Made by a program: the position numbers and the translations under genes. Positions 1-15,396 of a DNA stretch of 24,874 nucleotides are shown one piece after another. The notes beneath the pieces are model-generated. The model did no database searches, was not told the DNA's origin, and saw only the letters and a program-made list of their open reading frames with translations. This stretch comes from a virus (lineage: Duplodnaviria > Caudoviricetes), in the IMG/VR virus record IMGVR_UViG_3300020045_008320, positions 1-24,874 of that record. The stretch is one strand, 5' to 3'. Numbering within the stretch: position 1 is the first letter of the stretch; the number at the start of each line of letters is the position of its first letter.

Positions 1-2
1 AT

Positions 3-539
3 CGTTCGCCTGTTTTTTCGAAACATTTTATTGCTGTTCAAGTTATCCCAAAAGCAATGCATGGGATAACCCCGCGCTCTATCATGGGCGCTAATTGGTG
101 GCGCACACAAGCGAATATCGCCAAGGCAAAAAATAACAATTGCTGTTGGGCTTGCGGTGTAAATGTTAATGACGCGCTTTTTCATAAGCGTTTAGAAGGG
201 GCGCCAGTTTATGAAATAGATTATGAAAGAAAAGAAATGAAATTTTTAGAAGTGGCGGCGCTCTGCTATTGCTGCAACGCTTCTTTAAATATTGAAACAA
301 CGGAATCAATATTTTTAAAAGGGAATATGCATTTTTCTGTATTCCATAAAATTATTGAACACAGAAACAAAATGTGTTTTCTGTCTCCTTATCGAGAATT
401 AAAAAATATAGATTCAGGTTTTAATGAATGGGTTTATATAATTCAAAACACAAAATATTTTTCAAAGTTTTATAGTTTGGAAGATTGGCAAAATATTTAT
501 TCAACACAACAAAACGAGGTTATAAAAGATGGGAATTAA
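3..539 (+). CDS. HNH-like zinc-binding protein, probably catalytically degenerate; frame open to the window edge
   Basis: Frame is open from nt 3 (RSPVFSKHFIAVQVIPKAMHGITPRSIMG...). The pattern IPKxMHGxxPRxxxGxxWW...CWACG...LEGAPVYEID...ALCYCCN resembles phage HNH-family proteins (CxxCG...LEAHE...LCxxCH), but the His residues are replaced. Confidence 0.55.
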   Translation, partial: RSPVFSKHFIAVQVIPKAMHGITPRSIMGANWWRTQANIAKAKNNNCCWACGVNVNDALFHKRLEGAPVYEIDYERKEMKFLEVAALCYCCNASLNIETTESIFLKGNMHFSVFHKIIEHRNKMCFLSPYRELKNIDSGFNEWVYIIQNTKYFSKFYSLEDWQNIYSTQQNEVIKDGN

Positions 540-1776
540 AATCATTGATATAGACGAGGCGATTAACGACAACGGCCTAAAGATTTTGGTCTATTCGTTC
601 GCTGGCGCTGGTAAAACAGTTTTAACATCAACCACGGGGCAATCAACAATTATTTTGAGCGCTGAAGGTGGTTTGTTATCGCTCAAAAAAGTTATGCGTT
701 TGAATCCAGATTTGAAGAAAACGCACAAAGTTATTGTTATTCGTAACTATCAGGATTTACTTGAAGCTTATGAAATGTTTGCTGATTCCGATGAACGCTT
801 ATGCAACTGGATTGGCTTAGATTCTATTTCTGAAATTGCCGAGCAAGTTTTGACAGTTGCGAAAGAAGAAAACAAAGATGGGCGCGCCGCTTATGGTGAT
901 TTAACCGAAAAAGTTTTAGATTTGCTTCGCAAATTCCGCGACTTGCCTTTGTATAATGTTTACATGTCGGCAAAAATGGTTAACAAAGAAATTGACGGCA
1001 AGAATACTTTTGTACCTCTATTTCCAGGTCAAGGCATATCAAATAACATTCCATATTTGTTTGATGAAGTGTTTGCGCTTCGCGTTTTTGAAGAAACAAA
1101 AGGTGAAGAAACTATTCACAAACGTTATTTGCAAACCGTGAATGATTCTAAATATATTTGCAAAGATCGAAGCGGCGAGTTAGACGAATTTGAAAAAGCA
1201 AACCTTGCGCACATCTTCAAAAAAATTCGCGGATTTGATGAAGTCAATTTTGAATTAGACGAAGAGTCTAAAGAAAAATATTCACAAATTAAAACCGTTT
1301 CTGAAATCTATCATGATGACGATAACGAAGAAGAAAGCGGTTGCACCTATTGGCTTCATGAGCCAAGCGGCAAAACTATTGTTGCTCAACCAGATGATGA
1401 CACTAGCGAAATGTTAGCCGATGATGACGTGCGTGAATTGTCGTTTGAAGAGTGGCAAGAAATTACTGGTGTCGCTTCTAGCCAAGATGATGAATTGATT
1501 TCCAAAGTCACTGAAGAAGAAATTCAGGAAGGCGAAGAGGTTGAAGAGTTGTTAGCCGATGAGGTGCGTTATTGGCATCACACCGAACTTGATCAATACA
1601 TGCAAACCGAAATTGGAGACAATATTATTGATTTGTTGAATAATGAATTAATAGCTGAAGTCACTGAAAGTGTTTATTTAGAAAACACCGAGCCGAAAAA
1701 ATCGCAGCCTGTTGTTGAAACAAAACTTCAGAAAGCAAAGCGCGAAATGGAGGAAAAGCGCAACGCGGGAAAGTAA
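529..1776 (+). CDS. Sak4-like AAA ATPase/recombinase (AAA_24) with a long acidic C-terminal extension
   Basis: Walker A-like YSFAGAGKT, SAEGG, Walker B IGLDSISE, DGRAAYG, YLFDEVF and CKDRSG motifs. Followed by SSB and nuclease genes, as in the usual Sak4 module. SD GAGG upstream. Confidence 0.85.
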   Translation: MGIKIIDIDEAINDNGLKILVYSFAGAGKTVLTSTTGQSTIILSAEGGLLSLKKVMRLNPDLKKTHKVIVIRNYQDLLEAYEMFADSDERLCNWIGLDSISEIAEQVLTVAKEENKDGRAAYGDLTEKVLDLLRKFRDLPLYNVYMSAKMVNKEIDGKNTFVPLFPGQGISNNIPYLFDEVFALRVFEETKGEETIHKRYLQTVNDSKYICKDRSGELDEFEKANLAHIFKKIRGFDEVNFELDEESKEKYSQIKTVSEIYHDDDNEEESGCTYWLHEPSGKTIVAQPDDDTSEMLADDDVRELSFEEWQEITGVASSQDDELISKVTEEEIQEGEEVEELLADEVRYWHHTELDQYMQTEIGDNIIDLLNNELIAEVTESVYLENTEPKKSQPVVETKLQKAKREMEEKRNAGK

Positions 1777-1874
1777 AAAACGAGTTGCGCAAAGTTTTAA
1801 ATAAAGAGTTTTCTTTTATGCGCAATATTCACAAAATTTAATTTTATTCAATCAATCAAAAGAGAGTTTTAATC

Positions 1875-2375
1875 ATGGCAAAATTACCAGTAAGTTTCAA
1901 AGCTAAAGATGTTGTAGGTCGTATGGGTTTTGAAAATATCCCGAATGACGATTACACCGCGATTCTGGAAAAATCAGAAGCAAAAGTAACTAAAGAAACT
2001 GCGAGCCTTCCAAAATCGCAGCAAGTCACTTATTTAAATTTTCAGTGGAAGATTACTGAAGGCCAGTACAAAGGCCGCACTCTGTTTAATATTTTAAATA
2101 TTAACCACGAGAAAGATAACGTGCGCGAAATTGCAATGAAAGAGCTTGCAACTATCTGTGACGCTTGTGAAAAGGTTTCTATCAGCGACACAGAAGAGCT
2201 GCACGGAATAGAGATAACGATTGTCGTTGGCACTGATAAAGGCAGCGCTCAATACCCACCTAAAAATGTTATTCGCGGTTACAAACCTTTAAAGGGTGCT
2301 AAAAAACCAACGCTAGGAAAAGATGACGAAGAAGAAGCACCAAAGAAAAAAACTAACAAAGTTACATTTGGTTAA
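1875..2375 (+). CDS. single-stranded DNA-binding protein, DUF669-like
   Basis: FENIPNDDY...YLNFQWKITEGQYKGRTLFNILNI...ELATICDA...ELHG...KNVIRGY pattern; lies directly after the Sak4-like ATPase. Confidence 0.8.
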   Translation: MAKLPVSFKAKDVVGRMGFENIPNDDYTAILEKSEAKVTKETASLPKSQQVTYLNFQWKITEGQYKGRTLFNILNINHEKDNVREIAMKELATICDACEKVSISDTEELHGIEITIVVGTDKGSAQYPPKNVIRGYKPLKGAKKPTLGKDDEEEAPKKKTNKVTFG

Positions 2376-2386
2376 TTAAAATCAAT

Positions 2387-2414
2387 AAGCAAGGATGCTT
2401 TTTAATTTTTGGAA
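2387..2414 (+). promoter_or_regulatory. CsrA/RsmA-type binding hairpin (AAGC-AAGGAT-GCTT) plus a second GGA at the SD
   Basis: GCAAGGATGC matches the CAnGGAyG hairpin-loop consensus; a second GGA lies at 2411-2413, just before the ATG at 2422. Confidence 0.5.
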
Positions 2415-2421
2415 TTAAAAA

Positions 2422-3315
2422 ATGGTCGCTCTAACTTTACACAACACAACAAAAAAACTTTTAGATAATCGCCGCATAGCTAAAAAATATGGCCGTGGTT
2501 ATTTGGGAATGTCTTCCCTCGGTGATGAGTGTAACCGCAAATTGTGGTATGGTTTTCATTTTGTGTCGAAGCAATTTATTTCTGCGCGCACACAAAGAAT
2601 TTTTGATTTAGGTCATAAGTTTGAATCTATTATTATTGCAGAATTAAAAGAAGTTGGAATTCAAATTTATGCGATTAAAGATGGCCAAAAAATTGAGTTG
2701 ACTGGCATAGATGATGACCAAGAAACTTTATTAGGTTGTTTCGGCCATGAGTCTGGTCACACAGACGGGCGCGGGATTGGCTTCCCAGAGTTTCCAAAGC
2801 TTGAATGTTTAGTTGAATTTAAATCAATGAATGCGGCGAGTTTTGCCAGTGTCAAAAAATACGGTTATCAAGAATCGCACCCTGTTTATTATGCGCAAAC
2901 ACAGCGCTACATGAGAGAAAAGAAATTAACAAAAGTTTCTTTTATTTGCATTAATAAAAACAATTCTGAATATCACATTGAATTCGCTGATTATGACAAA
3001 TCTGTAGCCGATGATTTAGCGCGTAAAGGCCGAACAATTATCATGAGTGATGCGCCCCCGCCTAAAGCTTATCCAGAAGGTTATTTTAAATGTTTTAATT
3101 GTGATCATAATAAAGTTTGTCATCTTGGTTTTGATCCAGAGAAAAATTGTAGAACGTGCGACTTCGTAGATATTGCGGACAATGGCGAATGGCATTGTGG
3201 GAATAATGCCGCCAAAGATATGTTGAGTCTTGGCAAATGCGAAGATGAATATAATTTATCTTTAGATGAACAAAAAGCGGGCTGTGTTTTTTATAAAAAG
3301 GGGTGGAGTTTATGA
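2422..3315 (+). CDS. Cas4-like PD-(D/E)XK exonuclease with predicted Fe-S cluster (non-CRISPR)
   Basis: YLGMSSLGDECNRKLWY, GHTDG, VEFKS, YYAQTQRYM and C-terminal CFNCDHNKVC, plus an extra CRTC...C...C cluster. Confidence 0.85.
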   Translation: MVALTLHNTTKKLLDNRRIAKKYGRGYLGMSSLGDECNRKLWYGFHFVSKQFISARTQRIFDLGHKFESIIIAELKEVGIQIYAIKDGQKIELTGIDDDQETLLGCFGHESGHTDGRGIGFPEFPKLECLVEFKSMNAASFASVKKYGYQESHPVYYAQTQRYMREKKLTKVSFICINKNNSEYHIEFADYDKSVADDLARKGRTIIMSDAPPPKAYPEGYFKCFNCDHNKVCHLGFDPEKNCRTCDFVDIADNGEWHCGNNAAKDMLSLGKCEDEYNLSLDEQKAGCVFYKKGWSL

Positions 3316-3485
3316 GGCCAGATAGAATAAAAATGATTTTTGAATTAAAGAAAGAAAAATTATCAGATTATCAAAAAACTTTTCTAAGTCACTTAGTCGA
3401 TTTAATTAATAGCGGCTTAGATTTTAACACTGAGCAATCAGAAACACTCAACGCCATGTATGATGGCCTAATTTTAGGAAAATAA
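3312..3485 (+). CDS. small hypothetical protein (57 aa)
   Basis: ATGA overlap with the Cas4-like stop (3312-3315) and GGAG SD upstream; the next gene starts 2 nt after its stop. Confidence 0.7.
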   Translation: MRPDRIKMIFELKKEKLSDYQKTFLSHLVDLINSGLDFNTEQSETLNAMYDGLILGK

Positions 3486-3487
3486 AA

Positions 3488-4219
3488 ATGTTAAAAGACT
3501 TTCAAATGATCGCAATGGTTCAACTCCAAGATAAAATAAATTCTTTAATTAATAAAGATTGGGTTGTTGCGCAAAATAAATGGATGCTCGCGGGTGCTAT
3601 GGAGTTAGCAGAAGGAATAGACCACCACGGGTGGAAATGGTGGAAAAATCAAACGATCAATTTAAAACTTTTACAAAATGAACTTATTGATTATTGGCAT
3701 TTTGTTTTAAGTCAATCTATGGTTTATTCAGAAGGTGATTTAAACAAAGCATTTTATTTTTTAATGCCAAACAGTGCGAATTCTGAAGAAAGCCGCGAAC
3801 GAATTTTGTTTGATGGGTCTGGTTATATCATTGCCGAAATGAGCACCGTGGATAAGATGTTTTTATTGATTGGTTTAGCCGCATCTAAACGTTTTGAATA
3901 TTTCTTGTTCGAATCAGTAATGCAAGATTTGGAATTATCTTGGTCAGAATTATATGTTCAATATGTCGGCAAAAATGTTTTGAATATTTTTCGCCAAGAC
4001 CACGGATATAAAACAAACGAATATAAAAAAGAATGGTTTGGGCGCGAAGATAATTGTTTTATGATTGAATCTTTGGAGCTTTTTAGTGATCAAGTAAATG
4101 AGCCAGATTTTCAAGATGTTTTGTACAAATATTTTGAAAATATGTATTCTAGCTGGTTGGCTGAAGTAAATCATTCTGAAGAATTAGCAAACGATAAATT
4201 CAAAGGTGATCCAGCATAG
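3488..4219 (+). CDS. dut: dimeric all-alpha dUTPase (dUTPase_2 family)
   Basis: ELAEGIDHHGWKWWK, NELIDYWHF, YVGKNVLNIFRQDHGYK and GREDN motifs, typical of Campylobacter/trypanosome-type dUTPases. Confidence 0.9.
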   Translation: MLKDFQMIAMVQLQDKINSLINKDWVVAQNKWMLAGAMELAEGIDHHGWKWWKNQTINLKLLQNELIDYWHFVLSQSMVYSEGDLNKAFYFLMPNSANSEESRERILFDGSGYIIAEMSTVDKMFLLIGLAASKRFEYFLFESVMQDLELSWSELYVQYVGKNVLNIFRQDHGYKTNEYKKEWFGREDNCFMIESLELFSDQVNEPDFQDVLYKYFENMYSSWLAEVNHSEELANDKFKGDPA

Positions 4220-4223
4220 TTTT

Positions 4224-4261
4224 AAAAAGTTTGCACATTAGAAATAGTGTGCATTCTTTTT
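4224..4261 (+). terminator. hairpin: intrinsic terminator and/or operator palindrome
   Basis: AAAAAG-TT-TGCACATTA-GAAA-TAGTGTGCA-TT-CTTTTT: 9-bp stem (one G-U), GNRA loop and T-rich tail, between dut and the wHTH gene. Confidence 0.55.
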
Positions 4262-4279
4262 AATTCTGAGTTTAATAAA

Positions 4280-4513
4280 ATGATAAATGAAATTCCTATT
4301 CCACAATTAATAAGATTAAGAACAATAGAAATAATTTTAGATAATTATGGTTCGATAAACAGAAATATTATATGTCAATTATTTTCTATTGGTGTTGCGC
4401 ATGCTTCACTAGATTTAAAACTTTATCGAAAATTAAACCAAGATTCTGTTTTTTACAATAGAGTTTTAGGCAGAATAGAAAAGAGTATAGATTTTAAAAG
4501 AGTGATCCCATGA
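4280..4513 (+). CDS. stand-alone CapW/BrxR-like winged-HTH domain protein (77 aa, no WYL domain)
   Basis: QLIRLRTIEIILDNYGSINRNIICQLFSIGVAHASLDLKLYRKLNQDSVFYN...DFKRV follows the CapW N-terminal pattern as I recall it (RLxFIExxLxxxGxINRxDxxxxFGISxxQASxDLxxYxxxxPxNxxYD...F). ATG at 4280 is preferred over GTG at 4247, which lies inside the hairpin. Confidence 0.75.
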   Translation: MINEIPIPQLIRLRTIEIILDNYGSINRNIICQLFSIGVAHASLDLKLYRKLNQDSVFYNRVLGRIEKSIDFKRVIP

Positions 4514-4680
4514 TTAAAATATTCTGCCACCGATACAAAGTAAGTCACATAAAAAGAAGAAAGGTTATGAAGAGAGCCGCCAAAAATGGATTGTGCAAGA
4601 TGAAAGAAATAAATCAAGATGGTTTTCTTTACGAAATATCACAAGAAAATTTAAAATTGTTGCCGAGGTTTAAAAGATGA
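4510..4680 (+). CDS. small basic hypothetical protein (56 aa), absent from the ORF track
   Basis: Translates as MIKIFCHRYKVSHIKRRKVMKRAAKNGLCKMKEINQDGFLYEISQENLKLLPRFKR, with ATGA overlaps at both ends (4510-4513 and 4677-4680). Confidence 0.75.
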   Translation: MIKIFCHRYKVSHIKRRKVMKRAAKNGLCKMKEINQDGFLYEISQENLKLLPRFKR

Positions 4681-4901
4681 AATTAGTTAAAACAGAAAAA
4701 CCAAAAATAGAAAAAGAAGAAAATAAAAGATCAAATTATTTTTGCCGCGCTGATATAAACAAAAGGCCACATATTTGGTTTTCTTTTGGTCGCTGGCGTT
4801 ATTATTGTGCTAATGGGTGGATTGGTGGAAGAATGGCTGAAGCTTTTGTGAAGAGAAAAAACTTTGAAATTGATATGAGTATTCATAATGGGAGCAAGTG
4901 A
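4677..4901 (+). CDS. hypothetical protein (74 aa)
   Basis: GAGG SD upstream, ATGA coupling, and overlap with the helicase start. Confidence 0.7.
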   Translation: MKLVKTEKPKIEKEENKRSNYFCRADINKRPHIWFSFGRWRYYCANGWIGGRMAEAFVKRKNFEIDMSIHNGSK

Positions 4902-6504
4902 ATTCAAACCGCGTTTTTGTCAAACAGAATTTGCTGAAGTTTTATTTGATATAGTGATAAATAAAAATCCAAACCGCGATAGGCACCCAATAGGCGCGCT
5001 TCCAACTGGCGCAGGAAAAAGCCTCGCGATTTGCATGTTGATAGATTTGATCCTGACACACAATCCACGGTTTAATATTTTGGTAATGTGTGACCGTGCT
5101 ACTATTTTAAAACAAGACCACGACGACCTAGTTGATTATTTTGGCATTGATATAGGTTTATATTCTAGTGAATTAGAAAGTGCAACGATTAAAAAAATAT
5201 CAGTTGCAGGAATTCAATCAGTTTTTAGAAAAGGTCATTTATTCACGCATTTTGATTTTGTAATCATTGACGAATGCGACTCTGTTAATAAAAAAGATAA
5301 ATCAATGTATCGCAGTTTTTTGAATCAAATAGACGCCGTTTATGTTGGCACCACCGCGACCCCTTACGATTTGAAAGCTGGTTATTTGCATGAAGGCGAA
5401 AACGCACTGTTTACTGAAATAGCCGTGGATTGGACGCGAGGCGAAAAGTATCTGCAATTAGTTGAAGAGGGTGTTTTGCCCAGAATTTTATCGCGCCCAA
5501 CTTCTGTAAAGTTTGACCCCACTGGCCTTAAAAAATTAGCTGGGGATTATTCTTTAAAAGATCAATCAGAAAAATTTGACCAAGAACCGATTACAAGAGC
5601 CGCACTTATCGAAACCGCTTACTACGGCAAAAATTTTAAACGCTGGCTTTTGTTTGCAATTGATATAAAACACGCTGAAAATATTGGTAAAATTTTAGAT
5701 GAAATGGGAATCTCTAACTGTGTGATTCACTCTAAAATGGCCGCTGATAAAATGGAAATTTTAGAAGAGTCTAAAACAGGAAAATATAGAGCAATTATAA
5801 ATGTGGATGTTCTAACCATTGGCTACAATGATCCAAAAATAGATATGGTCGGTTTATATTTTTGCACTGAGTCCCCAAGAAAACACGTTCAAACTTCAGG
5901 CCGTTTAAGAGTTGATCCAGAAACGCCCTATAAGATCGTTTTAGATTTTGGTGGCAACTTTGCGCTAATGGGGGCGCTCAACAACGTTAGAATAAAAGAC
6001 CCTAACCGCAAAAAGGGCAAAAGCGAACCAATGATGAAAGTGTGCCCAGAGTGCGGTTTTTATTGTGAGATATTCGCAAAGTCTTGTGAAAACTGTGATT
6101 TTGTTTTTCCTGTTAAAAGTAAATTGAAAAAGAGCGCGGATATTGACGCCGAAATAATTAAAACAACTTTTGAAAAACCTGAAAAAATAAAAAAGGGCGC
6201 CATAGCTTGGGTTAAAGTTGACTCGATAAAATACGTGAAGTATCAAAAAACTGGCCGCCCAGATTCGTTTTTAGTGTGTTACACATGCGGCTATAGGGTC
6301 ATTAAGGACTATATAAATTTAGATCATGATGGCTACCCTAATCTATTAGCAAAAAACTGGCTGCGCTACCGCTGGGCTGGCGAAGGCAAAGCCCCAAGCA
6401 CAGTAAAAGAGCTTTTGGCTAACACGGATAAATTAAGGCCAGCGATTGAGATAAAAGTTGATACAACGGGGAAATTTGAAAAAGTAGTTGATTGCAAATT
6501 TTAA
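4888..6504 (+). CDS. SF2 DExD helicase, RadD/YejH-like, with Zn finger
   Basis: LPTGAGKS (I), IIDECD (II), GTTATP (III), VLTIGYNDP (V), QTSGRLR (VI), then CPECG...CENC. Confidence 0.9.
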   Translation: MGASEFKPRFCQTEFAEVLFDIVINKNPNRDRHPIGALPTGAGKSLAICMLIDLILTHNPRFNILVMCDRATILKQDHDDLVDYFGIDIGLYSSELESATIKKISVAGIQSVFRKGHLFTHFDFVIIDECDSVNKKDKSMYRSFLNQIDAVYVGTTATPYDLKAGYLHEGENALFTEIAVDWTRGEKYLQLVEEGVLPRILSRPTSVKFDPTGLKKLAGDYSLKDQSEKFDQEPITRAALIETAYYGKNFKRWLLFAIDIKHAENIGKILDEMGISNCVIHSKMAADKMEILEESKTGKYRAIINVDVLTIGYNDPKIDMVGLYFCTESPRKHVQTSGRLRVDPETPYKIVLDFGGNFALMGALNNVRIKDPNRKKGKSEPMMKVCPECGFYCEIFAKSCENCDFVFPVKSKLKKSADIDAEIIKTTFEKPEKIKKGAIAWVKVDSIKYVKYQKTGRPDSFLVCYTCGYRVIKDYINLDHDGYPNLLAKNWLRYRWAGEGKAPSTVKELLANTDKLRPAIEIKVDTTGKFEKVVDCKF

Positions 6505-6513
6505 CGAAAAAAC

Positions 6514-6543
6514 TTTACTTTTTGTCAAAAAAGCGTATATTCT
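6514..6543 (+). promoter_or_regulatory. putative sigma70-type promoter
   Basis: TTTACT (6514-6519), 18-nt spacer, TATTCT (6538-6543), in the intergenic gap before the 6600 gene. Confidence 0.45.
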
Positions 6544-6599
6544 GAAACTGTAGTTCAAGCTCAATAAAACAATCAATTAATCCAATTCAGGTAAAAAAT

Positions 6600-7412
6600 A
6601 TGAAAATTCTTTTTAGTGAAAAATTTAAGGCTTTGCGCACTGGCTTGTATATCGTTGCGGCTGCTGCTGTTGGTGAGTTTATCATTGACACTGATTTACC
6701 AGTTGACTCTAAAGAAATACCGACTGGTGGCATTTTGAAAAGCATTTTAGATGCCAACAAAATCGCTTTTAGTCAAAAAGCGACTAAAACCGAACTTTTA
6801 GAAGCGATTGAGGCAGGTGTTGAAAAACTTAAGCTCCCAACACAAAACGAAAAACCAGAATCAATGGTAGTTGCTGAATTTGTGAAAGAAGCTTACGAAT
6901 CAGGTGAACCAGTTGACGAAGACGAGTTGTTGATGAAAATCGTCACAGTCGGCAAAGTGAAGTTTAAAAATGCCGGTAAACTTTACAAACAAGCCATGAT
7001 TGATGGTGGTTATGCCGTTAGCAATAAAGACCGCAAACAAGCGGTTCATGAAATTTTGGTCGCTGCTGAATTTAGCCCCAACACTTGGGCTGAAGTTCGC
7101 GCCATGCTTGATCGTTTGGTTGCTGAAGTTCCCGCGACTGTTGAGAGCCAAGCCTATTCTTTGATCCGTGCGTATGCTAAAGAATTCGATATTTCTTTGC
7201 CTAAGCCAGAAAAAACATTGACCGCTGGCGGTGTTAAAGCGAAGATTCTCGACTTTATGTATAAGTCACCACTTTCTACAAAAGAAGATTTTTATTCTTT
7301 TGTTACTGAAGCGCTCGACAAAGACGAAAAAATGGCTGATAAATATTGGTCTATTTTTGAAGTCGGTCAAAAAATTGCAGCGGCTACAATCGCGCTTCAA
7401 TCTGCTGAATAA
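6600..7412 (+). CDS. hypothetical helical protein with a HeH/LEM/Rho_N-like motif
   Basis: LKSILDANKIAFSQKATKTELLEAI resembles the helix-extended-helix nucleic-acid-binding motif; flanked by a putative promoter and a terminator. Confidence 0.7.
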   Translation: MKILFSEKFKALRTGLYIVAAAAVGEFIIDTDLPVDSKEIPTGGILKSILDANKIAFSQKATKTELLEAIEAGVEKLKLPTQNEKPESMVVAEFVKEAYESGEPVDEDELLMKIVTVGKVKFKNAGKLYKQAMIDGGYAVSNKDRKQAVHEILVAAEFSPNTWAEVRAMLDRLVAEVPATVESQAYSLIRAYAKEFDISLPKPEKTLTAGGVKAKILDFMYKSPLSTKEDFYSFVTEALDKDEKMADKYWSIFEVGQKIAAATIALQSAE

Positions 7413-7435
7413 TTTTATTTATCATTAATAAAAAG

Positions 7436-7462
7436 AAAAGCCCGCTTAACGCGGGCTTTTTT
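7436..7462. terminator. bidirectional rho-independent terminator
   Basis: AAAAGCCCGC-TTAAC-GCGGGCTTTT(TT), between convergent genes. Confidence 0.9.
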
Positions 7463-7494
7463 ATATCCTTATAAAAACATCGTCCCTTTATTTA

Positions 7495-8265
7495 TTAGGC
7501 AACTTTTGTATTCGCTGCTGCTTGGGTTCCACTTGCTGCCATAGTTCCAGAGTTAAAAATAACTTGACCCTGTTTTACCGCTTGAATATCGCCCGCTAAA
7601 TTATTAAGCGCGGCCAAAATTGCTGAAGAAATTTGTAATTGTTGCTGTGCCTGCCCTTGCGCTTGACCTTGAACCTGTGTCGCGGTTGCGGTGTTCGTTA
7701 CTGACACCTCAACATCACGGATTCGAGAATTGAACTCTTGTCGAGCCAGCGCACTTTCAGCAATTGTGAGTCGGCGTTGCATATCTTGATCGTGATAAAA
7801 ATCAATTTTTGCGCGAGTTTTATCGCCATCGTCGCGGATTGCGGTAGTCGTTGCGTAATTTCCATCTTTTACAGCTGTTAGTAAAGCCGCTGTTGTTGTC
7901 AACACAGTGCGTTCAACTTCGTTAGTTGATGCTAAATTAATAGCTGCTGAAGCCTGCACAGAATCTTTAACGTTTGCAAAACCTTGTTGAGTCCCCAAAG
8001 CGAGCGCCCCTATCGAATGATTGATAGAAGCTTGCGTTTCTAATGCAGTTGTTGGAACGTCTGCTGTAAGGCCGTTAACCGCGTTTAGGATCGCAGCATC
8101 AAGGAATTTACTCGTTTCATTGACACACTCTCCACCTTCGCCACCAAGACCACCACGCCGCAATAGGGATGCGATTAGAACACCCGCTAACAAACCCCCT
8201 TCGCCACCACCGCCAAAACCAAAACCGCCGCGACCACCTACAATATCGTTAATTTCCATAGCCAT
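7495..8265 (-). CDS. Gly-rich/hydrophobic N-terminus plus coiled-coil phage protein of unknown function
   Basis: AAGGGG SD before the ATG; GGFGFGGGGEGGLLAGVLIASLLRRGG N-terminus; Ala/Gln/Thr-rich helical body with DDGDKTRAKI. Confidence 0.8.
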   Translation of the reverse strand: MAMEINDIVGGRGGFGFGGGGEGGLLAGVLIASLLRRGGLGGEGGECVNETSKFLDAAILNAVNGLTADVPTTALETQASINHSIGALALGTQQGFANVKDSVQASAAINLASTNEVERTVLTTTAALLTAVKDGNYATTTAIRDDGDKTRAKIDFYHDQDMQRRLTIAESALARQEFNSRIRDVEVSVTNTATATQVQGQAQGQAQQQLQISSAILAALNNLAGDIQAVKQGQVIFNSGTMAASGTQAAANTKVA

Positions 8266-8455
8266 GATAAAACCCCTTAAAAAATCCTTTTGGCATTATT
8301 GCCTCGGTAAATATGCGCCTATTTAGTCGATAAAAAAGTTTTATATATTATTAAAAATAGATTGATTTTGAATTTAAAATGTGAGCATAGCCATATATAT
8401 ATTGTATATACATACAACAAGCAACAAGTCAACAATGCCGCCTATAATTATTCAC

Positions 8456-8484
8456 TTGATTTTAATATATATTAAAAATATAAT
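8456..8484 (+). promoter_or_regulatory. near-consensus sigma70 promoter with a palindrome over the spacer
   Basis: TTGATT-17 nt-TATAAT; perfect 18-bp palindrome TTTTAATATATATTAAAA at 8460-8477; SD GAGGA at 8502. Confidence 0.75.
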
Positions 8485-8515
8485 AACTCGACCAAAACCA
8501 AGAGGATTTAAAAAA

Positions 8516-8734
8516 ATGTCTAAGAAAATAAATGTAGTTTGCGACAATGTTAGTGAGCCTATGAAATTCGATAGCAAAGAACGCGCCCAATGTTTTATTG
8601 ATGCAATCGAGGATAATGCTTCAAGAATTTGGTTTATTCGTGAAAAAGGTGATCTTTTCGACCAAACATTAAATTATTTAGTTTATACAACTATTTGCGG
8701 AATTGAAGTTTTTGTAACAGGGGTAAATCTATGA
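8516..8734 (+). CDS. hypothetical protein (72 aa; start revised from 8381)
   Basis: ATG at 8516 has a GAGGA SD and the promoter upstream; ATGA overlap with the exonuclease gene. Confidence 0.75.
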   Translation: MSKKINVVCDNVSEPMKFDSKERAQCFIDAIEDNASRIWFIREKGDLFDQTLNYLVYTTICGIEVFVTGVNL

Positions 8735-9279
8735 TTGTTTTCGACACTGAAACCACTGGGCTTTTAAAGCCCGACCCCTGTGCATTAAATTTGCAGCCAC
8801 ATATTTGTGAAATTTACATGGCTAAGTTTGACAATAAAGGCAAAATTATTGCTGAGTTTGAAACATTTATTAAACCGCCCGTTCCTATTCCAGAAATCAC
8901 CACAAAATTAAATGGCATAGATGACCACATGGTCAAAGATGCACCCACCTTTATAGAAATTTATGATAGTCTCGCCGAATTCGTTTTAGGCGAAAAAACT
9001 ATTTTTGCTCACAATTGCGCGTTTGATATTGGAATGCTAAAAGTTGAATTGCAAAGACACGGGATAGAATACAATTTCCCTTGGCCGCCGTATCAATGTT
9101 GTACGGTTGAGGCTAGTTTTTGCATTGAAAACAAACGCCTTAAGCTAGAACGTCTTTATCAAATCGCAACTGGCAAAACTCTTGTGACAAAACACCGTGC
9201 TAAAGATGACGTTAAACAATTATTAGAGTGTGTTTTGTGGCTCAAAAAAGAGGGCTTCATTCATGAACTCTTTAATTAA
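8731..9279 (+). CDS. dnaQ: DEDDh 3'-5' exonuclease (DnaQ/epsilon-like)
   Basis: VFDTETTG (Exo I), AHNCAFD (Exo II), HRAKDDV (Exo III). Confidence 0.93.
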   Translation: MIVFDTETTGLLKPDPCALNLQPHICEIYMAKFDNKGKIIAEFETFIKPPVPIPEITTKLNGIDDHMVKDAPTFIEIYDSLAEFVLGEKTIFAHNCAFDIGMLKVELQRHGIEYNFPWPPYQCCTVEASFCIENKRLKLERLYQIATGKTLVTKHRAKDDVKQLLECVLWLKKEGFIHELFN

Positions 9280-12136
9280 TATTGCGCTAAGAAGTGAATA
9301 TTCTTTTAAAAAGACATTCGGAAAAATTGACAGCCTCGCACAATATTCGCAAGGCATTGCGCTAGGAATCGCAGATTTTAACAACACATATGCACACCCA
9401 TACTTAGAAAAAATCGCCAAAAAACAAAATTTTAAACCGCTCTATGGTGTTCGCCTTCAGGTTATCCAAGACGATCAATTGCGCGAACGTGGAGCGCATG
9501 GCGCGATCTATATTTTTATTGCAAAAAATCAAGAGGGTCTGTGTGAAATAAATAATTTAGTGAAAGTTTCTCACGACAAATTTTATTTTAAACATCACAT
9601 TGCAATGAGTGATTTATTTGAAGTTTCGAATAATGTAGTTGTGATTGCTGAAAGCTTAGAAACTGAAAAACGTTGTGATTATTTAGCACTAACCCCTTCA
9701 ACTAATCCGCTTATTTTTCAATTTGCAAAAGAAAACAATATAAAATGTGTTTATGTTAATGATAACTATTATTCAACACCTCAAGATAAAGACGTTTATC
9801 AACTCATGGCAGGACAACATAAACGTGGTGATGAATATTATTATAATTTTGATAAAAAAACAGCACCACAACATATTTTAAATGAACATGAATTTAATCG
9901 AATCTGGAAACACCCAGAAGCAAAAACAAATCTTTTAGAAGTAATTGATCAAGTTGAAAACTTTGATTTAAAACGTGCGCCAATGGTTGCCTATAATGGC
10001 TATAGATCAATTGAGGTTTGGTGTGAAAAAGGCGCTAAAAAATTAGGCGTAGATTTAAAAGATGAAATTTATTCAGCACGATATAAAACTGAAATGGATT
10101 TGATAAAAGATAAAGGCTATGTTGATTATTTTATGATTGTTTCTGAAATGATCGAAAAAGCAAAAGATAGAATGCTGGTAGGTTGCGCCCGTGGTTCTAG
10201 TTGTGGTTCGCTGGTTTGTTATTTATTAGGAATCACAACGATTGACCCGATTAAATTTGGCCTTTTATTCGAGCGTTTCATTGATGTAAACCGTTTCGAT
10301 TTGCCAGACATTGACATTGACTTTCCAGATATTAAACGCGAATCAGTAATAAAAGATTTAGTGAAAAAATATGGCGAAGATAATGTTTGTTTAATCGCTA
10401 ACATTAATCGAATGAAGCCAAAAAGCGCGATTGGTGATTTTGCCACTGCTTTGCGTATTCCTAAATATGAATCTGATTTAATAAAAGATTCTATTGACGA
10501 TAAAGCGGTTGGTGATTCTCGCGCCGATAAAACTATCGAGGACGCTTTTAATACGATGGATATAGCACGGGATTTTGTTAAAAAATATCCTGCAATGCGT
10601 TTGGTTACACAGGTTCAAAACCACGCCTCCCACGCTGGCCTCCATGCCGCTGGCGTGATCATTGCGAATGATCCTGTGTCAACATATGGCGGCATAGACA
10701 CGCGCTCCGGTTGCATCATGCTAGATAAAAAACAATCTGAATATTTAAATCTTTTAAAAATTGACTGCTTAGGTTTGCGCACGTTAACAATTTTACAAGA
10801 GTGCGCTGATTTAGTTGGAATGAATTTTTTAGATTTTTATGATTTGCCTTTAGATGATAAAAAAACATTTAAAGTTTTTCATGATATGCGCCTTTATGGG
10901 ATTTTCCAATTCGATGGCCAATCAATGCGCGCAACATGTCGCGATATGGGTGTGAAAAATTTCGAGGATATTTACGCAATTACAGCGATTGCAAGGCCGG
11001 GGGTTATGGCTTCAGGCGGCACAACGCGCTTTGTTCAAAAGCGTATTGGCGCTGCTGAAATTGATTATGTTTCAGATCATCCCGCATACATTGAAGCCAC
11101 AAAAGAAACCTATGGAGAATTAGTTTATCAAGAGCAGATCATGATGATTTGTAAAAATTTAGCTGGCATGAGCTGGGGCGAAGTTTCAGAGATTAGAAAA
11201 TTAATTTCTAAATCTGCGGGCGAAGAATCTTTTGGAGAATACAAAAACAATTTTATTTTAGGCTGTGAAAAAGAAGGCGTAGAAAAAATGAAAGCCGAAA
11301 CAATTTGGTTAAATATGATTGTGTTCGGTGGCTATGCAATGAATAAATCACACTCGGTTGCCTATGGTCATATTAGCTATTGGTGTGCCTATATGAAATC
11401 ACACTTCCCCCTAGAATTCACGGCTGCAAATTTAAAATATGCAAAAGATAAACATTCGGCTATTCGTATTTTGCGTGATGCCGTGGAGAATGAGGGCATA
11501 GAATATTCACCAATTGACCCAGACCTCTCAGAAATAGATTGGTGCGTAAAGGAAGGCCGTTTGTTAGGTGGTTTAAAAAATATCAAAGGTATTGCAGACG
11601 CGAAAGCAAAAGAGATTTTGCGCGCTAGAGCTGGGGAGAAAAAATATACCCCATCACAAATTAAAGTGTTGTTAAACCCCGTGACTGATTTTGATACGAT
11701 CTATCCTTGCCGTGATTATTATTATAATTTTTATATGAATCCGCAAAAGATTGGATTAAGTTCCCCAGTTGAATATATAAAAAATGTCGTTTGTGATGTT
11801 GAATGTGAATTTATTATTCTTGGAAAAGTTATTAAAAAAGAATTGCGCGATCTTAACGAATATTCAGAAATATTAAAGCGTCATGGAAAAGTGTTAGACC
11901 AACACAACAAGTTTTTAAAGCTTATCGTGGAAGACGACACGGATCAAATCTCTTGCCGGATTAATCGTTTCAAGTTTGACAGATTAGATGGTGCTAGATG
12001 GGCTGAAGAGTTAAAAGAAGATGAAACCTTTGTTTTATTGAAAGGTGTTGTGAAAGAAGGCATTAGAATTTTTCACATAAATTCTATTTTTAATTTAACT
12101 GAAAATTTTGATAATGGCGAAGGTGAAGACGAATGA
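9263..12136 (+). CDS. dnaE: DNA polymerase III alpha subunit (family C, DnaE-like)
   Basis: LRSEYSF PHP start, RGSSCGSLVCYLLGIT, LLFERF, DLPDIDIDF catalytic motif, HAAGV, LLKIDCLGL, YQEQIM, YAMNKSHS and a C-terminal OB fold. ATG at 9263 (GAGGG SD) is preferred over GTG at 9230. Confidence 0.95.
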   Translation: MNSLINIALRSEYSFKKTFGKIDSLAQYSQGIALGIADFNNTYAHPYLEKIAKKQNFKPLYGVRLQVIQDDQLRERGAHGAIYIFIAKNQEGLCEINNLVKVSHDKFYFKHHIAMSDLFEVSNNVVVIAESLETEKRCDYLALTPSTNPLIFQFAKENNIKCVYVNDNYYSTPQDKDVYQLMAGQHKRGDEYYYNFDKKTAPQHILNEHEFNRIWKHPEAKTNLLEVIDQVENFDLKRAPMVAYNGYRSIEVWCEKGAKKLGVDLKDEIYSARYKTEMDLIKDKGYVDYFMIVSEMIEKAKDRMLVGCARGSSCGSLVCYLLGITTIDPIKFGLLFERFIDVNRFDLPDIDIDFPDIKRESVIKDLVKKYGEDNVCLIANINRMKPKSAIGDFATALRIPKYESDLIKDSIDDKAVGDSRADKTIEDAFNTMDIARDFVKKYPAMRLVTQVQNHASHAGLHAAGVIIANDPVSTYGGIDTRSGCIMLDKKQSEYLNLLKIDCLGLRTLTILQECADLVGMNFLDFYDLPLDDKKTFKVFHDMRLYGIFQFDGQSMRATCRDMGVKNFEDIYAITAIARPGVMASGGTTRFVQKRIGAAEIDYVSDHPAYIEATKETYGELVYQEQIMMICKNLAGMSWGEVSEIRKLISKSAGEESFGEYKNNFILGCEKEGVEKMKAETIWLNMIVFGGYAMNKSHSVAYGHISYWCAYMKSHFPLEFTAANLKYAKDKHSAIRILRDAVENEGIEYSPIDPDLSEIDWCVKEGRLLGGLKNIKGIADAKAKEILRARAGEKKYTPSQIKVLLNPVTDFDTIYPCRDYYYNFYMNPQKIGLSSPVEYIKNVVCDVECEFIILGKVIKKELRDLNEYSEILKRHGKVLDQHNKFLKLIVEDDTDQISCRINRFKFDRLDGARWAEELKEDETFVLLKGVVKEGIRIFHINSIFNLTENFDNGEGEDE

Positions 12137-12420
12137 AATATATAATGATAGAGCAACCCTTTGCCGCTGGCATGGTTCGACAAATTCCAATAATTTTTCC
12201 TAAAACTTTAGTCCATGATGAGGTTTTTGATTCTATTAAAGCTTTATGCGGTGAAAATTGTAAGCCTGTTTCTGCTGGTGAGATTAGTTTATTCGGCGGT
12301 CAAGTTAGATGCGGCGGCAATAGCGAAACATTAAAAATTAGTAGTCGTGGTGCGGTTGACGAAGAGATAATAAAACTTTACGACTATCAACACGGTTTAA
12401 TTGAATTGGAAGGGGTATGA
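12133..12420 (+). CDS. phage hypothetical protein
   Basis: ATGA-coupled; MKYIM...PIIFP..LVH...PVSAG...SETL..SR pattern that I recall recurring in phage hypotheticals. Confidence 0.8.
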   Translation: MKYIMIEQPFAAGMVRQIPIIFPKTLVHDEVFDSIKALCGENCKPVSAGEISLFGGQVRCGGNSETLKISSRGAVDEEIIKLYDYQHGLIELEGV

Positions 12421-12965
12421 AGATGAGTAAACGATTTGGGAGAAATCAGAAAAGAAAATTATTAGAAAATATTGATTTTTTAAATACTATTAGCGAAAAC
12501 CAAAGCAAAACTATAATTGAGCAAGGCCGCACAGTTTTAAATTTTGGAAAAGATGTTGAGTTGTTGAGAAAACAAATGTACGAAAATGAATATATCGTAC
12601 AAGAAACAAAAAGAATTTTTGGGCAATATTTTATTGCTCTAAAACCTGAAACCGTAAATCTAAACACTAAAGATTTGCCGCCTGAATTTGCTTTTCATAT
12701 TCAACAAGATTTTGAATGTATGGATTTTAGAGCATCAGGCAACGATTCAAGCGCGAATCTAATGCGCACTTATAAATATTTACAAACAACAAAAGGGAAA
12801 GCCTACAAAGAAGAGTTGCGCGGAATGGTTCATTTTTATTTACAATCAACCAAAGGCGAGGTTGGGTATTGCATAGATTGGCAAATGAGAAAAACAATGC
12901 CAGAGAAATATTTAATAGAGTTTATCGCTAAAGAATTGGTCAGAGAATTACAAAAGGTTAAATAA
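12417..12965 (+). CDS. hypothetical protein
   Basis: ATGA-coupled 182-aa ORF; TAATG junction to the next gene. Confidence 0.75.
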   Translation: MKMSKRFGRNQKRKLLENIDFLNTISENQSKTIIEQGRTVLNFGKDVELLRKQMYENEYIVQETKRIFGQYFIALKPETVNLNTKDLPPEFAFHIQQDFECMDFRASGNDSSANLMRTYKYLQTTKGKAYKEELRGMVHFYLQSTKGEVGYCIDWQMRKTMPEKYLIEFIAKELVRELQKVK

Positions 12966-13339
12966 TGGCAACCTCAACAACAAAGCGCAATCCAGAATGG
13001 CTAGCGAAGCAAGACGAAAACGATTTAGCTCTAAACAAGAACTATCGCAGGTCTATAAAATATTATCGAAAGCTATATATGGCATGGCCTGAATGGATAG
13101 CAGACGATAAAAGATTTAGTGAAATCTATAAGCTTCGCGAGTTGATGAATAAAGAAGCCGGTGAAAGTATTTATGCAGTTGACCATATAGTTCCAATTTG
13201 TAGCGATATAGTTTGTGGCTTGCATGTTCCTTGGAATTTAGAAATTATCACTGTAAAAACAAACAATTTAAAATCGAACAAATGGTGGCCAAATCATCCA
13301 TTTGAAAATTTAGATTTATTTAACCAGGGTATTTATTAA
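12965..13339 (+). CDS. HNH endonuclease-family protein
   Basis: VDHIVPI...VCGLHVPWNLEII...NNLKSNK motif. Confidence 0.85.
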   Translation: MATSTTKRNPEWLAKQDENDLALNKNYRRSIKYYRKLYMAWPEWIADDKRFSEIYKLRELMNKEAGESIYAVDHIVPICSDIVCGLHVPWNLEIITVKTNNLKSNKWWPNHPFENLDLFNQGIY

Positions 13340-14424
13340 TGGAAAAAGTTACTTTATATTCAAAAGATGCAAAAGATTCTATCCGTGTTTGGTCTATTCA
13401 TCACGATGATAAAAATATCTATATGTTTTCAGGTTTGTTAGGTGGTGAAGAAACGCCGTTTACAGAACCCGTTGAATTTGGTTTAGGTGGCCGCACCCGT
13501 GAAGAACAGATAGAAATGAGAATAAAAAGCCGGATCAATAAAAAATTAGATTCTGGCTATGTTTATTCTTTAGAAGATGCACGGAATAATGTTAAAACAA
13601 ATTCGCTTGGTTATTTAAAAGCGGCTAAGTGTTCGCGCTATGATGAGCAAAAAGATAAAATCCCATTCACTAAAACTTTTGTGCAACCCAAATTAAACGG
13701 CCACCATTGTTCAATTGTTAATGATAACGGCGTAAAAGTCGCGTATTCAAACGGCGGGAAATTAATAACAACTATCGACCATATTTTAAATGATTTTGAT
13801 TTACCTGTTGGCCGCTCTGTTGAAGGCGAGCTTTACCACCACGGGACAATTTTACAAACTATCTCTAGTTGGGTGCGCAAAAAGCAAGAAAACACAAAAT
13901 TACTTGAATTTGTGTGTTATGACCTCGTTTCTAAAGACTGCTACACAGAGCGATTCAAAACCCTGCAATCGTTCCATTATGGAGCCAACGCAAGGCTTAT
14001 AGAAACCGCTGTGATCAACGGTCACTTTGAAGTAATCCCAATCATTACCGAACACCTGAAAAGCGGCTTTGAGGGCACCGTATTAAGGCTCACGGGCTAC
14101 CCATACGAAGCGGGCAAGCGATCCGCTGGAATGATCAAGGTTAAAGTGATGCACATAGGCGGTGATTTCATCGTGGATGATGAGTTTTTAATCGTTGATG
14201 TTGGTTCAAGTGTTGACGGTTGCGCCGTTTTGTGGTGTGAAACTGAAGAGGGTCGAAGATTTAAAGTTTTGTGCCATGGTGATGTGGCTTTTAAAAAGCA
14301 CGTTTTGAAAAATAAACAAAAATATATTGGAAAACATACTAGAGTTGAATTTGAAGGCTATACAAAAGATAAAAAACCTTTTCAACCAGTTTCCAGAGAA
14401 TTTAGAGAGAAAGCCGATGAATAA
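13339..14424 (+). CDS. ATP-dependent DNA ligase
   Basis: QPKLNG (I), EGELY (III), FVCYDL (IIIa), FEGTVLR (IV), MIKVK (V), OB domain, and an N-terminal LYSKD...RVWSI extension. Confidence 0.9.
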   Translation: MEKVTLYSKDAKDSIRVWSIHHDDKNIYMFSGLLGGEETPFTEPVEFGLGGRTREEQIEMRIKSRINKKLDSGYVYSLEDARNNVKTNSLGYLKAAKCSRYDEQKDKIPFTKTFVQPKLNGHHCSIVNDNGVKVAYSNGGKLITTIDHILNDFDLPVGRSVEGELYHHGTILQTISSWVRKKQENTKLLEFVCYDLVSKDCYTERFKTLQSFHYGANARLIETAVINGHFEVIPIITEHLKSGFEGTVLRLTGYPYEAGKRSAGMIKVKVMHIGGDFIVDDEFLIVDVGSSVDGCAVLWCETEEGRRFKVLCHGDVAFKKHVLKNKQKYIGKHTRVEFEGYTKDKKPFQPVSREFREKADE

Positions 14425-14587
14425 GTACGCAGATATTAAAAAGTCTAAACGTGAAGAAATTGAAAATCATGTTGCTAATTTTTTAAATCATGGAAAACGA
14501 ATAAAAATAATTGCGATTGGTAAGAGCGCTAGTGAAAAAGAAACTCTGACAAATAGACAGAAAACCAGAAACGAAAAATCCCGCTAA
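14417..14587 (+). CDS. SutA RNA-polymerase-binding-domain-like mini-protein (56 aa)
   Basis: KKSKREEIENHVANFLNHGKRIKIIAIGKSA parallels the SutA core as I recall it (KxKERxxLxxxMEEFLxxGGKVxxI). ATG at 14417 overlaps the ligase end. Confidence 0.65.
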   Translation: MNKYADIKKSKREEIENHVANFLNHGKRIKIIAIGKSASEKETLTNRQKTRNEKSR

Positions 14588-14600
14588 TCGCGGGATTTTT
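14574..14600. terminator. bidirectional terminator between the replication and tail/lysis modules
   Basis: AAAAATCCCGC-TAATC-GCGGGATTTTT, perfect 11-bp stem. Confidence 0.9.
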
Positions 14601-14616
14601 ACTTTCATCATATGTT

Positions 14617-14889
14617 TTAGCTGAGACAATGCGATAAATCAAGCGAACGGCGCAAGCCGATAAAACCGTGACACGCTGAGAAGCCGTTGTTCTTGGGTTT
14701 TGAACTGAAAGAATAATCGGTTTTAACGCTTTTTGCAGCAACACAGATTTTTTCAACTGCCTTTAAAACTGGCTCGCAGAATTTTGAAGCAGAGAAAACC
14801 AAAGCTTCTACGCAAAAGCTCGCGAATGATTGACAAGCTAGAACAACACCTAGCGCCAATCGGTGAAGCACATTCTTAAAATTTACCAT
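14617..14889 (-). CDS. small Cys-rich protein with hydrophobic N-terminus (possible exported protein/lipoprotein)
   Basis: Strong SD AAAGGAGAGGG; N-terminus MVNFKNVLHRLALGVVLAC; own promoter upstream. Confidence 0.7.
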   Translation of the reverse strand: MVNFKNVLHRLALGVVLACQSFASFCVEALVFSASKFCEPVLKAVEKICVAAKSVKTDYSFSSKPKNNGFSACHGFIGLRRSLDLSHCLS

Positions 14890-14948
14890 TTTTAAGCCCT
14901 CTCCTTTCGTTGATAGAACGGTTTAATTAAACCCTTTCGGGAATCTAC

Positions 14949-14976
14949 ATATTAAACAATATATAGTGTTTGTCAA
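14949..14976 (-). promoter_or_regulatory. sigma70-type promoter
   Basis: Minus strand TTGACA-16 nt-TAATAT, starting immediately after the endolysin stop codon. Confidence 0.6.
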
Positions 14977-15396
14977 CTACCACCTAGCCGCACCTGTTGA
15001 CCGTGCGTCTATGTGGTTAAAGCTGTTATAAGTGCCAATCCCAAAATGCGGATAATTAACATTAAAGAATTCCGCAACTTCTTTAGTTTTCAATTGTTTT
15101 CCACCAACAAAAACTTTTATATCAGCGGCTATCCCATATTGATGCTGGCTATTCTCAGCAGTATCAGCTCCGCTTTTTCCTTTTGTTTCTATAAATTCAA
15201 CTCGCAATTTTTCATTATGTTTTTTACAACGACAACCACAAGTAACAACAATAGAAACTTTTTCTTTAGTTGAATTTTTTAATCTATCAACATAGTGCTG
15301 TAATGCTGTTAATAATTCAAAATCAACCGTGTTAAAGCCGCACCCACATTCACACGCGAACTCTTTGCGTCTAAAGTTGTTTGTTAAATCGCCCAT
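14977..15396 (-). CDS. endolysin, peptidase M15A family
   Basis: NFRRKEFACECGCG, TCGCRCKKHN, SQHQYGIAADI and GIGTYNSFNHIDAR...ARW motifs. Confidence 0.9.
   Translation of the reverse strand: MGDLTNNFRRKEFACECGCGFNTVDFELLTALQHYVDRLKNSTKEKVSIVVTCGCRCKKHNEKLRVEFIETKGKSGADTAENSQHQYGIAADIKVFVGGKQLKTKEVAEFFNVNYPHFGIGTYNSFNHIDARSTGAARW

Follow-up and report, generated by a model that had tools for sequence, protein, structure and literature searches.

The principal switch known to raise CBASS, BREX and similar defences, once DNA is damaged or an infection is restricted, is the WYL repressor. The phage DNA analysed here (24,874 nucleotides, hereafter the window; a virus record of about 52% of the genome) encodes a protein of 77 amino acids that looks like the DNA-binding head of such a repressor standing alone. 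The locus raises the question of what a phage does with this head. A sequence-only reading had offered two answers, a mimic that keeps host defence operons off or a repurposed phage regulator. Features of the window are collected in Table 1.

Table 1. Features of the window, with positions counted from its first nucleotide
Feature	Position	Strand	Details
Inverted repeat TTGCGCA ... TGCGCAA	about 1789–1829		Sak4–SSB intergenic region
Dimeric dUTPase gene	3488–4219	+	Upstream; last of the Sak4–SSB–Cas4–dUTPase run
Terminator-like hairpin	4222–4263	+	Between dUTPase and 77-aa gene; 9-bp stem 4232–4253, GAAA loop, U-tract
TGAG, weak Shine–Dalgarno-like	4267–4270	+	9 nt before the ATG; from sequence
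Stand-alone CapW/BrxR-type winged-helix gene, 77 aa	4280–4513	+	Translation and fold comparison
Helices and wing of the 77-aa protein	residues 7–23, 28–35, 39–52 (recognition helix); wing 57–68		Predicted model
56-aa ORF	4510–4680	+	ATGA overlap; later start at 4567 possible
Superfamily-2 DNA helicase gene	4888–6504	+	Downstream; phage replication module
Promoter-like TTTACT-16-TATATT	6514–6541		Ahead of the 270-aa ORF; repeated promoters of phage Sonora start with the same −35 hexamer
270-aa ORF	6600–7412		Weak HeH/LEM and YejK matches at most
Strong hairpins	7436–7460 and 14574–14600		Between converging transcription units; likely bidirectional terminators
PolIII alpha, separate epsilon-like exonuclease, ATP-dependent ligase	8731–12136 and 13339–14424		Phage-encoded
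Small ORF	14327–14587		phrog_15231 and a weak SutA RNA-polymerase-binding domain match (E 0.0014, below cut-off); possibly a second transcription factor

The translated gene ends in a stop codon after residue 77, its product has a pI of 9.65, and the CapW N-terminal winged-helix pattern picked out in the sequence-only reading is present in it. Local Pfam-A, PHROGs, PADLOC and NCBIfam gave no family assignment; the precomputed domain is PF26109 (WHD_BrxR). A phmmer search of the PDB at E ≤ 10 returned four sequences, of which the top three are all CapW (7TB6, 7TB5 and 9C5G), with the 7TB6 match covering residues 10–61 at E 4e-4. The AlphaFold model has a pLDDT of 93. Its top ten Foldseek rows are all CapW or BrxR (7TB6: TMq 0.90, rmsd 0.8 Å, 32% identity), so that these repressors, and not an unrelated HTH family, come first, as the sequence-only reading had expected. 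VIA-align against 48,161 chains likewise ranks BrxR and CapW first, at Z 14.8, 12.3, 11.9 and 9.9, the next chain scoring 8.6. Nothing in a viral structure library reached E ≤ 0.001; the best row there is an uncharacterised 97-aa Pantoea phage protein. The protein thus has the WHD_BrxR winged helix that characterises the CapW and BrxR WYL repressors.

The rest of such a repressor is missing: the chain carries no linker, WYL domain (RWHVR) or WCX domain. The sequence-only reading had the protein stop where the WYL domain would begin; the sensor domains are indeed absent, but the end falls earlier, ahead of a helical linker of about 50–65 residues (residues 71–136 in Rl CapW, according to an excerpt of PMC11662680). 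An HMM built from the C-terminal parts of 68 full-length proteins, which found 29 matches in a positive control, detects no linker, WYL or WCX remnant in the six frames of the window, ruling out a frameshifted or split WYL domain. These data support a true CapW/BrxR-type winged helix that is intact and sensor-less. The protein works like a CapW head but falls outside the CapW/BrxR repressor family, since WYL and WCX, the operator and the defence operon are lacking.

The gene lies in a replication module ordered Sak4-like, SSB, Cas4-like, dUTPase, 77-aa gene, two small ORFs, helicase, PolIII alpha and ligase. With the dUTPase, small ORFs and helicase as its neighbours it has no defence operon beside it, and PADLOC gave no credible match for five window proteins. 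The helicase has no relative among viral contigs, its closest cultured match being 38.6%; we infer a proteobacterial host for the phage. The GC content of the 77-aa gene is 25% (GC3 13%), against 31–38% (GC3 24–36%) in seven other window genes. Its ATGA coupling to the next gene, on which the sequence-only reading had drawn, is real as an overlap of stop and start at 4510–4513, but the 56-aa partner has no credible family in PHROGs, Pfam-A, PADLOC or NCBIfam, and its Atlas leads are all below 0.9. A GTG at 4247, inside the upstream hairpin, is a less likely alternative start. This hairpin is strong (z −5.7; 0 of 200 shuffles) and, among 51 short genes, is of a type found at this one only, with no conservation among relatives.

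Stand-alone heads occur well beyond this phage. When WYL-less homologues were surveyed, as the sequence-only reading had proposed, 55 of the 56 HMM matches in viral loci (a count in which some loci repeat one contig) were short and ended within a few residues of the same domain boundary, whereas 70 of the 79 matches in genome loci were full-length and 6 short; the two short genome-locus forms viewed in wider context both lie beside integrase or resolvase genes. A tblastn search of 50,697 phage records gave three matches, all short genes (75, 110 and 109 aa), and phmmer against 1.84 billion representatives gave 24, all of 121 aa or shorter. Searching with gp88 of phage Sonora, from which many of our short forms are seeded, added 78 short proteins, in a search length-limited by design. 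PF26109-only clusters make up 18 of 30 Atlas feature matches, and two of the top three are mostly viral. The 77-aa protein itself is a singleton at 90% identity; a scan of viral contigs for its subclade found none, and metagenomes gave two loci. As a longer or fused close parent, a weak search that scored 8000 candidates offered five matches, all of them ordinary full-length WYL repressors. Some members (L003:2989-3318, L002:2977-3309, P0094 and P0100-P0103) are variants of about 100–120 aa with a short C-terminal extension, and Arash gp136c is labelled ‘WYL domain-containing’ in GenBank with no detectable WYL. Four loci that are at an edge, possibly broken or partial (L057, L087, L097 and L119), and L166, are excluded from all counts and trees.

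The short genes are maintained as such. The C-terminal HMM detects no WYL remnant within 900 nt downstream of the 51 short genes, and dN/dS of close pairs is 0–0.48 in the 19 computable of 20 pairs, which are non-independent (about five groups) and come from relatives, the 77-aa gene itself having no close pair. In a first tree all 15 full-length proteins fall on one branch; with an unbiased full-length set, 29 of 30 do so (support 99/98) and one long branch strays, and a topology that keeps all 30 together fits better (p-AU 0.805). The 77-aa protein falls in a nine-row, all-short clade (96/88), its nearest relative being that of locus L130 at 47%, and the short forms nest in neither host helix class. 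Redundancy filtering left 117 of 213 and 71 of 249 rows for the trees, which are unrooted, span 73 columns and therefore do not tell which form gave rise to the other. L162 and L163 encode full-length WYL proteins with a short-form-like helix 1 (RLRAIE..LL) and Leu at position 19, which makes them candidates for an ancestor-like group, although their branch is long and its position unsure. Together, the fixed boundary, dN/dS below 0.5 and the split between short and full-length proteins uphold the earlier view of an intact rather than broken gene. The short forms make up a family that is enriched in phages, ends at a constant C-terminal boundary and is subject to purifying selection, and the 77-aa protein is a member of this uncharacterised phage stand-alone WHD_BrxR family: it is a single domain ending at the F-x-R-x-x boundary, lies in a phage and groups with short forms apart from full-length ones in the unrooted, 73-column trees.

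CapW dimerises through domains that are absent here, with which passages of 10.1101/2022.01.04.474952, PMC9122589 and PMC11662680 are consistent, and the sequence-only reading had raised dimerisation as a caveat. In dimer prediction, two copies of the 77-aa protein score 0.67 against 0.00 for the best of three controls, a score that 20 of 30 solved homodimers attain, as does 1 of 23 monomers. Contacts, 16–18 altogether, agree to at least 88% between runs, with a pLDDT of at least 89. The predicted interface is confined to helices 1 and 2 (residues 15, 18, 19, 22, 23, 29, 30, 33 and 34, with 19–19 and 23–23 at the two-fold); helix 3 and the wing take no part in it. The caveat is thereby eased, with support for pairing short of its demonstration: by prediction, two copies join through helices 1 and 2. 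The high score may partly reflect likeness to solved CapW dimers, and the model may simply bury a hydrophobic patch whose real partner is another protein.

Conservation distinguishes the two families at this surface. At position 19, 145 of 148 short forms have a hydrophobic residue and 62 of 62 full-length proteins Arg; at position 23, 141 of 148 short forms have an aromatic residue and 56 of 62 full-length proteins Asp or Glu. In the unbiased full-length set the contrast is weaker but persists (Arg at 19 in 23 of 27, acidic at 23 in 17 of 27). The 77-aa protein, with I19 and Y23, follows the short family in this part of helix 1. The patch on helices 1 and 2 likely packs on the linker or WYL domain in CapW, and in the short forms it would have been rebuilt for self-pairing. 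Judged from the contact list rather than from coordinates, the dimer face would lie opposite the recognition helix, so that the two DNA faces need not be side by side as they are in CapW.

The residues that contact DNA are partly kept. By structural alignment offsets, R12 takes the place of BrxR R11/R17, which contacts a phosphate and without which BrxR neither binds nor represses (excerpt of PMC9122601). Two of the four DNA-binding residues given for Sm CapW (R32, S42, Q45 and S47) are retained as R28 and S43, with G38 and H41 replacing S42 and Q45, and V39 stands at the place of R38, the base-reading residue of BrxR (excerpt of PMC9122589). None of 89 full-length proteins has Gly at position 38, against 39 of 149 short ones, and no other short form has H41. 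Within the nine-row clade the recognition helix differs in all nine rows; all six sequences of the subclade alignment share R12, R28, S43 and the wing residues Y59-N60-R61/R65-I66-E67, while positions 38–41 vary. All four CapW residues are found in 58 of 148 short relatives, a set seeded from Sonora gp88, and in 13 of 27 full-length proteins of the unbiased set; the helix uniformity among the other 62 is an artefact of a retrieval pattern that included the recognition helix. Judging from R12, R28 and S43, the protein is likely to bind dsDNA, and G38, V39 and H41 suggest that its specificity has changed. Six loci (L005, L010, L012, L017, L040 and L049) hold two short genes in tandem or close together, most pairs differing in recognition-helix type; such pairs could possibly form heterodimers.

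To compare these genes with a defined target, expectation maximisation on 43 non-redundant capW upstream regions gave a 25-bp palindrome, TAtgCGTATA-N5-TATACGcaTA, with sites in 33 of 43. The loci behind this consensus (L009 and L054-L129) encode SxPQAS-type CapW and span Proteobacteria and Acidobacteria. In leave-one-out tests 31 of 33 sites reach 15 bits or more, an independent locus scores 20.2 bits, and the consensus agrees by eye with the E. coli CapW probe shown in an excerpt of PMC11662680. The model covers one operator class, because at least 10 bits are reached by 7 of 15 independent SxxQ-type proteins and 0 of 12 of other helix types. Upstream of short genes no CapW-type operator of this class is seen (0 of 51 reach 10 bits; maximum 8.5), the 77-aa gene included, which has no palindromic operator of the CapW-type site model at its own promoter. 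Nor does the Sonora genome contain one (maximum 6.6 bits), though gp88 keeps the CapW residues. It follows from the lack of CapW-type sites beside them that the short forms do not autoregulate as CapW does; the same lack is equally compatible with a target in the host, a phage target at a distance or weak specificity.

Other candidate sites were discarded. The palindrome at 4232–4253 scores −7 to −10 bits, folds like a terminator and is unique among the 51 genes. The best operator match in the window, at 11717 (18.7 bits; 95th percentile of shuffles 16.4), is AT-rich, lies inside the polymerase gene and has no CG core. A CGTATA half-site at phage −10 boxes (window 6534 and three promoter-like sites in Sonora) is not enriched, with 32 seen and 52 expected in 36 loci, and the Sonora promoter also occurs in Pseudomonas phages that gave no gp88 match. 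No convincing palindrome is shared upstream of 43 short genes (expectation-maximisation log-likelihood 57/69, against 37–52 for shuffles and 285–298 for full-length proteins), and positions 1–15000 of the window hold no repeated intergenic motif.

Short genes sit in early or replication and accessory operons, the closest relative of the 77-aa protein in a YqaJ–SSB early operon. Among 125 neighbours in 32 loci, 39 have a PHROG match, and for 15 a function is named (DNA methyltransferases, integrases, ParB, helicase, RNA ligase, CII-like and RusA); the 39 include no virion or lysis family, and there is no fixed partner gene. A tyrosine recombinase lies within two genes of the short gene in L006, L026, L130 and L136. 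In L136 (L136:11308-15161) the short gene and integrase also adjoin a reverse transcriptase and an 800-aa ParB-HTH protein with a C-terminal H-NS DNA-binding domain. Among sampled genomes at least 45 of 401 and at least 26 of 401, roughly 6–11%, have any match. Compared with that share, two of seven genomes with a stand-alone head also carry a full-length repressor, and five show no full-length copy. The helix types agree in both of the two (G003, SxPQAS; G001, A..RD type), at about an even chance each.

We consider the best explanation, with a probability of about 0.4, to be a constitutive, self-dimerising phage DNA-binding protein that acts on phage DNA with a specificity unlike that of CapW. 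On this view the gene is an intact accessory one of the phage, and its product, a small, basic winged helix built like a CapW/BrxR head, is predicted to form dimers by means of helices 1 and 2. Because it has no ssDNA sensor, it would probably be bound to dsDNA at all times with no signal required, likely as a repressor-type regulator of the phage’s own early or middle DNA at sites other than the CapW operator. The changed DNA-reading residues are what make the phage’s own DNA a likelier target than host defence switches; both this phage-side target and the constitutive activity are our inference. Of the two options offered by the sequence-only reading, the repurposed phage regulator is thus favoured, given G38 and H41 at the places of CapW S42 and Q45 and V39 at that of BrxR R38. 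Against it, the operator searches gave no phage operator, and the position of the gene is not conserved, unlike that of most phage regulators. With the window covering about 52% of the genome, the target may be in the other half.

The other option, mimicry, would place a sensor-blind dimer on the operators of host WYL repressors, where it would keep defence off when ssDNA releases CapW or BrxR; we think this possible but unlikely for the 77-aa protein and more probable for members with the R/S/Q/S set. The 58 of 148 relatives that keep this set include gp88 of Sonora, whose host species is the source of Sm CapW. The absence of the operator from phages, upstream of the 51 short genes and in Sonora, fits a target in trans, the tandem pairs have different helices, the helix types in G003 and G001 agree (anecdotally), and an ssDNA-blind BrxR abolishes induction (excerpt of 10.1101/2025.11.13.688357). 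Induction in turn helps against prophage induction and counter-defence, according to parts of the same source and of PMC11662680. Extended to the family, phage short heads would be ssDNA-blind, self-dimerising repressors whose varied helices and tandem pairs cover different host WYL operators and clamp inducible defence shut during replication or prophage induction, the 77-aa protein being a variant for an uncharacterised host WYL repressor, a picture that we likewise hold to be unlikely, if worth keeping in view. Yet WYL repressors within one cell show no cross-talk (10.1101/2025.11.13.688357, in part), CBASS protects against lytic lambda independently of CapW induction (PMC11662680, in part), any match occurs in just the small share of genomes given above, and five of seven genomes with a stand-alone head have no full-length copy. 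The helix agreement is n = 2, the short forms are not nested in host helix classes, and the predicted interface would not give the side-by-side spacing of CapW. What stands of the defence-operon proposal is a WYL-less family carried by phages; G38 (0 of 89 full-length), V39 and H41 lean away from an operator-matched mimic here, and mimicry would apply mainly to the 58 relatives.

Ranking behind mimicry, and doubtful, is an architectural role, in which a dimer with its DNA faces apart would bridge, coat or bend phage DNA with little sequence preference, in replication, recombination or shielding or, in some temperate members, in an excisionase-like manner. An interface limited to helices 1 and 2, as predicted, would leave helix 3 and the wing free for this, the phosphate-side residues and wing are invariant while 38–41 vary, and the setting in replication and recombination modules, at four loci with a tyrosine recombinase close by, would suit it. 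The back-to-back geometry, however, comes from a contact list; many members keep the CapW helix exactly, a precision superfluous to non-specific binding; an integrase within two genes is absent from most loci; and L130 has a separate DUF4224 protein, of what we take to be an excisionase-like family. Less probable again is inhibition at the protein level, with the hydrophobic helix 1–2 patch binding a host WYL repressor or another protein. Positions 15, 18, 22 and 34 are conserved hydrophobic in full-length CapW too, and published work has the wHTH lying against linker and WYL (PMC11662680), but CapW Arg19 is replaced in essentially all short forms, self-pairing scored well, and a displaced repressor head would tend to switch defence on, which would not benefit the phage. 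That the gene is a functionless, decayed fragment of a captured host capW gene we regard as very improbable: low GC and GC3 suggest a foreign origin and the protein is a singleton, but no WYL remnant lies in the window or downstream of short genes, the stop position is fixed, relatives are under purifying selection and the nine-row clade is all short, so that decay is already contradicted at the level of the family.

For this family of tiny proteins, common in phages, a dimer face has been predicted and a host operator consensus computed, and for one member, Sonora gp88, the phage is in culture and the CapW of its host species is solved. In the literature covered, largely outside subscription journals, we found no work on WYL-less heads in phages and no phage counter-measure at the WYL switch. 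Were mimicry true, it would be transcription-level anti-defence by regulator mimicry; were it to fail, there would still be a phage lineage that uses a sensor-regulated DNA-binding domain as a stand-alone dimer.

Among known systems, two defence regulators outside the WYL class serve as analogies only: RptR, a small repressor of defence loci that is host-encoded and autoregulatory (excerpt of PMC12255303), and phage-encoded H-NS, proposed to be a phage copy of a host silencer of defence genes and of another fold (excerpt of PMC3097231). CapW, the wHTH–WYL–WCX repressor of CBASS (7TB6, 7TB5 and 9C5G), shares the winged-helix fold and two DNA-binding residues (R32 and S47, as R28 and S43) with the 77-aa protein, which differs in lacking linker, WYL and WCX, in G38 and H41 for S42 and Q45, in Ile19 and Tyr23 for the helix-1 Arg and Asp, and in being phage-encoded with no operator or defence genes adjoining. 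BrxR (E. fergusonii 7QFZ; Acinetobacter NEB394 7T8K/7T8L) gives the top VIA-align match (Z 14.8, rmsd 1.1 Å over 76 residues), and its R17/R11 corresponds to R12; its readout, SRQQ or APSVAT, is GVAHAS in the 77-aa protein, which has neither the domain-swapped scaffold nor a sensor. Closest in architecture are the stand-alone PF26109 WHD_BrxR proteins, which carry automatic names alone and no assigned function. Sonora gp88 (QYW02189) and two forms of about 110 aa, fHe-Yen9-02 gp285 and Arash gp136c, match it in their short build and in where the domain ends, and the 77-aa protein, about 36–41% identical to such proteins, stands apart in a diverged subclade with a YNRxxxRIE wing and a variable helix.
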